From NCBI RefSeq assembly GCF_003334335.1, contig NZ_QOWQ01000057.1: DNA of 17,995 nucleotides; one strand, 5' to 3'. A program made the position numbers and the translations under genes. The stretch is from Escherichia coli (GTDB taxonomy: Bacteria; Pseudomonadota; Gammaproteobacteria; Enterobacterales; Enterobacteriaceae). Positions 16,026 to 16,353 of the stretch are shown one piece after another (within the stretch, counting starts at the first letter, position 1; each line of letters opens with the position of its first letter). Below the pieces are notes generated by a model. That model did no database searches. It was not told the origin of the DNA and saw only the letters and a program-made list of their open reading frames with translations.

Positions 16026-16353
16026 TTGAGCCTGTAACTGTTTTTTGTCCATAAATTAACCTTCATTTGATGCTGGATTGAACATATCAAAATCAGACAA
16101 TTACACAAATCTATGTACAGGCTCTTCAATTTGTTTTTGATCGCTGATGTGACTGACAACAAACGCTCACGGAACACTAAATCCCGCTCTTCAGACGTTA
16201 ACTCGCCTCGCTCAATAAGCTCTCTGATAGAATCTCGTGGCGTTGGCGTGACTACTTCAAAACAAAAAGTCTCACCATTTTTCTCGGCGACAAAGTCTGG
16301 TCCAGCATCCTTGCTTTTAATGTCGCTAAAGCCCATCTCCATAAGGTAGCCTG

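Follow-up and report, generated by a model that had tools for sequence, protein, structure and literature searches.

On the border of an Escherichia coli defence island (type I R-M/DarTG), what is the short stretch of DNA that separates the last gene of the island's operon from the insertion sequence (IS) debris beyond it? The first-pass annotation described an orphan segment of ~330 bp bearing the start of a protein-like, minus-strand open reading frame (ORF), and took this for the 5′ remnant of a gene truncated by rearrangement. The window (the whole 17,995-nt stretch analysed here) is E. coli chromosome, with an identical stretch in ~190 complete genomes; its features are collected in Table 1. 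It is highly likely that the segment is a non-functional scar, holding an internal fragment of ~73 codons from a stand-alone gene of 410–413 aa, hereafter the parent.

Table 1. Features of the window around the scar, in order of position.
Feature	Position	Strand	Basis
hsdM-hsdS-darT-darG-hsdR-M48 array	up to 16025	+	ORF list and RefSeq annotation
M48/DUF45 (YgjP-like) gene, intact, last of the array	15309..16025	+	ORF list; RefSeq
IS1414 (IS256 family) end fragment, 97 bp, transposase-proximal end	16028..16124	-	Match to full copy
Internal remnant of the parent gene, codons ~109–181	16125..16341	-	97.7–98.2% nt identity to intact loci
IS600 (IS3 family) left terminal inverted repeat (IRL), element positions 1–32, position 2 G->A	16342..16373	+	
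Internal IS600 segment	16370..16523	+	100% over 154 nt against complete IS600 (L004 2001–2154)
IS66-family element, inserted in the IS600 remnant and running off the window end	16524..17995	+	NCBIfam
IS66-family genes: TnpA, TnpB (NCBIfam 119 bits), start of TnpC	TnpA 16606–17043; TnpB 17040–17390	+	NCBIfam matches to IS66 TnpA, TnpB and the IS66 transposase

RefSeq names the M48 gene (identical sequence) an M48 family metallopeptidase, and an orthologue matches Pfam YgjP-like. The DarT/DarG DNA ADP-ribosyltransferase toxin-antitoxin pair lies at 10475–12195, inside the type I R-M operon, with hsdS on one side and hsdR on the other (RefSeq, identical locus); darT is frameshifted in E. coli 1303.

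Composition of the minus-strand reading frame

The minus-strand ORF was recovered at 15914..16342 (142 aa) with the N-terminal residues quoted in the first-pass annotation, and the impression of a protein-like head held up: the coding signal of its first 73 codons was far above chance, and codons 2–73 (window 16125–16341) are real coding sequence. The tail, which had been described as low-complexity, is instead the out-of-frame end of IS1414 (residues 74–105) followed by antisense M48 sequence (residues 106–142). The reported antisense overlap with the 3′ end of the DUF45 gene is genuine, and takes in the last 112 nt of that gene. Nor is the ‘orphan’ a single segment, since it is made up of the IS1414 end fragment and a gene remnant of ~217–221 bp (16125–16341/16345). 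The 142-aa ORF is a chimera, of parental codons, then out-of-frame IS1414, then antisense M48.

When 110 aa of the ORF were searched against protein databases, 98 matches came back, ~95 of which covered only residues around 58–105. As homologues of the fragment these ~95 were rejected, local alignment showing that they translate the IS1414 end where a contig stops. Some ~90 ‘partial’ entries, otherwise unrelated, share residues 74–105, mostly at one of their own ends. This 32-aa out-of-frame translation (LYIDLCNCLILICSIQHQMKVNLWTKNSYRLN) is found at the ends of proteins as varied as an MFS transporter, Rz, the Q antiterminator, an ISAs1 transposase and Aca2; such tails are an annotation artefact from contigs that break in IS1414. 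The ORF is also predicted by some gene callers (P0001, 142 aa; P0002, 100 aa). A search with window 16120–16345 matched 199 genomes, and in the genome rows examined no RefSeq feature lay under the scar, bar that of E. coli 1303, where the match falls inside a ‘hypothetical protein’. NCBIfam yielded nothing meaningful for the chimeric ORF. An annotation trap is thereby corrected, on the one hand the 142-aa chimera emitted by gene callers, on the other the dozens of ‘partial’ proteins with an IS1414 tail.

The remnant, its intact counterparts and the flanking insertion sequences

A search of the protein databases for a full-length parent, as the first-pass annotation had proposed, was run exhaustively with phmmer: the query (74 aa) aligned to residues 107–178 of a 410-aa protein (P0099, E=9e-32). 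At the nucleotide level, window 16125–16345 matched a gene of E. coli 1303 at 97.7% identity over 221 nt (E=1e-106), and the same 221 nt matched four further intact E. coli loci (L010–L013) at 98.2%. The parent in E. coli 1303 is WP_244465590.1, a minus-strand gene of 410 aa annotated ‘hypothetical protein’; the four other E. coli assemblies carry an intact 413-aa allele (cluster P0106). In all five loci the intact gene is convergent to the M48/DUF45 gene, in the same position and orientation. The proposal of a truncated gene at the island edge was thus right, in that a full-length parent occupies the same locus in related strains and the rearrangement is IS-associated; the proposal of a 5′ remnant was not, however, as what survives is an internal piece (codons ~108–181 of 410–413) cut on both sides. 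Comparison with these related islands also places the same bases inside a CDS, contrary to what would be seen were the segment non-coding at the intact locus.

In E. coli 1303 the hsdMS-darTG-hsdR-M48 array recurs with the 97-bp IS1414 fragment beyond it, and the intact gene comes next. The two loci are collinear: window 15300–16124 corresponds to 7169–7993 of the E. coli 1303 locus (L002) and window 16125–16345 to 9001–9221, such that the window is without 1,007 bp (L002 7994–9000), and this gap begins exactly at the IS1414 terminus (16124|16125). Among 5,426 complete E. coli genomes, ~194 match the parent only at nucleotides 695–915, and only 6/5,426 have at least 80% of the gene; the 5′ 107 codons and 3′ 229 codons are absent from scar-bearing genomes. 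The remnant remains in frame with no internal stop or frameshift. Against the L010 allele its protein sequence differs at two residues only (M/L at the junction, A/T at 16306), so inactivity does not follow from sequence decay by itself. A dN/dS calculation on the remnant, with only 4–5 differences, was set aside as uninformative. The conserved GPDF...FEVVTP...K178 core is kept, and helix alpha-1 (R97/E100), strand beta-4 and the whole C-terminal domain are missing, as seen from the family alignment and a structure model; the scar contains no ORF of ~350–430 aa with a native start and C-terminal domain, the mark of a complete family member.

ETEC TW10598 (L003 6006–6139) has the same IS1414/gene junction and a remnant of only 134 bp, cut by a different IS66-family insertion, which is a second, independent erosion step at the same site. 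In the intact-gene strains (L002 9984–12541; L010–L013 1–7604), the island edge is continued by a cdiA/cdiI locus for contact-dependent inhibition, which includes orphan toxin and immunity modules (DUF596, PT-VENN); this DNA is missing from the window lineage.

On its M48 side the remnant abuts the IS1414 fragment, which matches an IS1414 end in thousands of E. coli records. Identity to the end of a full IS1414 copy (L005) is ~98%; in that copy an 8-bp target duplication (AGGTGCTA) marks the limits of the element, which places the terminus (...GTACAGGCTC) at window 16124. The window does not hold both ends and an intact gene, but only 97 bp and 8 transposase codons: the minus-strand transposase ATG is at 16052–16050, and after 25 nt of CDS the fragment ends, at 16028. 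The same 97-bp fragment occupies the same site in all five intact loci. A solo ~98-bp copy of this IS1414 end (91.8% identity) lies between cvrA and dadX in REL606 (L014 1501–1598), and a ~98-bp solo copy was the best match in many sampled genomes, seemingly at one chromosomal site. Possibly the 97-bp element is a MITE-like mini-element bounded by GAGCCTGTA inverted repeats, as its inner edge (16028–16036) resembles the IS terminal repeat (16116–16124); against this, the left ‘repeat’ sits within the IS1414 transposase CDS, and no target duplication was seen either in the window or at the cvrA-dadX copy.

On the other side the remnant meets IS600, and here the apparent start of the ORF loses its standing. 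Both intact alleles compared read CTT TTG GAG ATG (L-L-E-M) where the window reads CTT ATG GAG ATG, so that the ‘start’ (ATG, 16342–16340) is TTG Leu108 of the parent, on the IS600 junction. The sole differing base there, 16342, is T in the window and A in both intact alleles; it gives the A of the apparent ATG, and it matches IS600 position 1. Window 16344–16373 matches a complete IS600 at 30/30 bases of its left end (TGAGGTAGCC...), IS600 position 2 is A instead of G in the window, and 16343–16345 could equally be parent-derived, leaving the junction ambiguous within 4 nt. The ATG may have been formed at the junction, by an IS600 T joined to parental TG, with a complete IS600 end carrying G2->A; or it may reflect a point change (A->T) in the parent beside an IS600 end without 4 nt. 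Each reading requires one substitution, and under either the ATG at 16342 is an artefact, of junction or of mutation, and not a native start. Upstream of it there is just a 3-nt AGG.

IS600 is itself a ruin. Its IRL, identical over positions 3–32, is joined to the internal segment by a ~570-bp internal deletion at a 4-bp overlap, CTTC (16370–16373), so that in place of a terminal inverted repeat with complete orfAB there is an end, a deleted interior and an interrupted rest; RefSeq labels the internal segment an IS600 transposase pseudogene with its N-terminus missing. Of the matches in 5,426 complete E. coli genomes, the best 30 all end at or before 16523, and the IS66-family insertion at 16523|16524 appears to be specific to the source strain.

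History of the locus and alternative explanations

At each of its breakpoints (16124 and 16342) the remnant meets an IS terminus. The arrangements seen among these strains show an ordered series of steps, the mechanisms of which we infer from sequence. In the ancestral order the M48 gene was followed by the 97-bp IS1414 fragment, ~310 bp of further DNA and the convergent parent gene, which thus closed the type I R-M/DarTG island on its right. A deletion of ~1 kb, running from the IS1414 terminus into codon 181, took away the DNA between the genes together with the 3′ 229 codons. That its start coincides exactly with an IS end suggests an IS-mediated adjacent deletion, although this would require transposase to have acted on the 97-bp end fragment, either in trans or before the IS was truncated. 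IS600, with its left end from 16342, replaced the 5′ 107 codons in an IS600-associated loss; the IS600 interior was lost later, and an IS66-family element hit, in this window, at 16523|16524. The ORF is accidental, the junction base turning the Leu108 TTG into ATG and the frame happening to run on through IS1414 and antisense M48 to a stop. Read in this way, the window records in order the steps by which insertion sequences eroded the border of a type I R-M/DarTG defence island.

Might the frame nevertheless be functional? If the ATG at 16342 were an authentic start, the fragment would be a gene's 5′ end, left behind after loss of the 3′ part, as the opening of the ORF with ATG and protein-like sequence, and its prediction by some gene callers, would lead one to expect. 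This is extremely unlikely, and is refuted by the intact loci: its residues align at positions 107–180 of 410-aa homologues and never at an N-terminus, the intact alleles have a TTG Leu preceded by 107 more conserved codons, and the IS600 inverted repeat stands immediately upstream. A newly born, expressed protein is likewise very unlikely, whether the 142-aa chimera or a shorter product from Met3, for example a shortened nuclease core with a decoy or dominant-negative action. It is true that the frame is open for 142 codons, that the invariant D123, E136 and K178 are retained, and that the scar is kept at ≥99% identity in ~194 genomes; this retention, however, equals flank identity and is consistent with shared descent, and in TW10598 the remnant has been cut further, to 134 bp. 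Half of such a protein would be out-of-frame IS1414 and antisense M48, it would be missing three parts of the model (helix alpha-1, which carries E100; strand beta-4; the C-terminal domain), only the AGG trinucleotide precedes the ATG, and RefSeq makes no call there. A promoter scan of 15800–16700 found no sigma-70-like site. The test for a functional gene thus came out negative, the start not being conserved in homologues, no promoter-like site being seen, and RefSeq annotation being absent in the rows examined.

The segment might alternatively act without being translated, whether by encoding an sRNA, by serving as a regulatory region or by terminating the convergent M48 operon. It does lie directly downstream of the operon and contains one terminator-like hairpin (minus strand, 16290–16272), yet no Rfam family matched 15800–16700 at E<=1, every base is accounted for by coding DNA of a known gene and by IS ends, and the counterpart bases are coding at intact loci, making a functional non-coding element exceedingly improbable. 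An IS-bounded pseudogene scar is therefore preferred, one that is probably inert and would yield no functional product; for the window itself it matters little.

The parent family and its relation to known systems

All that the scar offers for future work is a lead to an intact gene, nuclease-like and uncharacterised, that lies beside known defence systems, as it does in E. coli 1303. The parent family comprises ~80 clusters of 350–430 aa in Proteobacteria (Enterobacterales, Pseudomonas, Burkholderia, Stenotrophomonas and Aeromonas), every one named ‘hypothetical protein’ and none with a Pfam domain. The parent itself gave no Pfam match even at E<=10, nothing meaningful in NCBIfam and no match in a sequence-profile search of the PDB; in PHROGs it matched phrog_8571, of unknown function. 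Invariant in the family alignment are R97, E100, G121-P-D-F124, E136, T139-P140, K178, N202-D203 and T318/R320-E-D322. A confident AlphaFold model of the parent (pLDDT 85.6, pTM 0.87) has the alpha-beta-beta-beta-alpha-beta arrangement of the restriction-endonuclease-like core fold. Set against the signature E ... D ... (D/E)-x-K, the family has invariant E100, D123 and E136 but Val at the +2 position, and an invariant K178 on the next helix. Foldseek neighbours in AFDB were mostly uncharacterised, a few being labelled restriction endonuclease or NERD.

Intact members of the family were found in R-M/DarTG islands, in ICE cargo regions, on plasmids and in a phage protein family. In E. coli the parent lies among R-M/DarTG and CDI orphan modules, in P. 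aeruginosa beside a UvrD/PDDEXK_1 cluster and IS elements, in Yersinia within ICE cargo and in Stenotrophomonas in a KAP NTPase region; no conserved partner gene was found among these contexts in the four taxa. The P. aeruginosa homologue (L006–L009 700–7779) sits beside a conserved trio, flanked by IS elements, whose products are of 872–884 aa (without Pfam domain), 1058 aa (UvrD helicase plus PDDEXK_1) and 403 aa (without Pfam domain), a possible defence cluster. The parent is most plausibly a mobile, stand-alone PD-(D/E)XK-type nuclease, and possibly a defence or accessory gene, as yet an unproven role. One might go further, tentatively and with some doubt, and suppose that the family is an undescribed single-gene anti-phage or anti-plasmid nuclease and that the window records its repeated loss in E. 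coli, the scar being inert all the same. If true, E. coli would keep at least 80% of a defence nuclease gene in 6 complete genomes against a scar only in ~194.

Set against known systems, the scar is ordinary genome decay. It resembles other IS-associated gene decay (here by the IS256-family IS1414 and the IS3-family IS600) in that the remnant breakpoints lie at IS termini, and differs from such IS-adjacent deletions in that no more than a 97-bp end of IS1414 is present, the mechanism being correspondingly conjectural. For the parent, the closest systems include the PD-(D/E)XK (restriction-endonuclease-like) nucleases, such as XisH (2okf), CdiA-CT (4g6v), HamA (8vxy), Hjc (1gef), PspGI and NgoMIV. 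A further comparison is with PD-T7-1, an anti-phage system of one gene that comes from the E. coli pangenome and has been validated (Vassallo et al. 2022, PMC9519451); it has a predicted RmuC-like domain (PMC10270631). The PADLOC profile for PD-T7-1 (PDLC04073) matched the fragment at E=0.0057 and the parent at 23.3 bits (E=5.7e-6), in the latter case aligning residues 93–152 with profile positions 162–221 of 452, which at 60/452 positions falls short of full-length family membership. This local match nonetheless lies over the putative nuclease core of the parent, and both PD-T7-1 and the parent are stand-alone genes of ~400–450 aa carried in defence islands and mobile elements.
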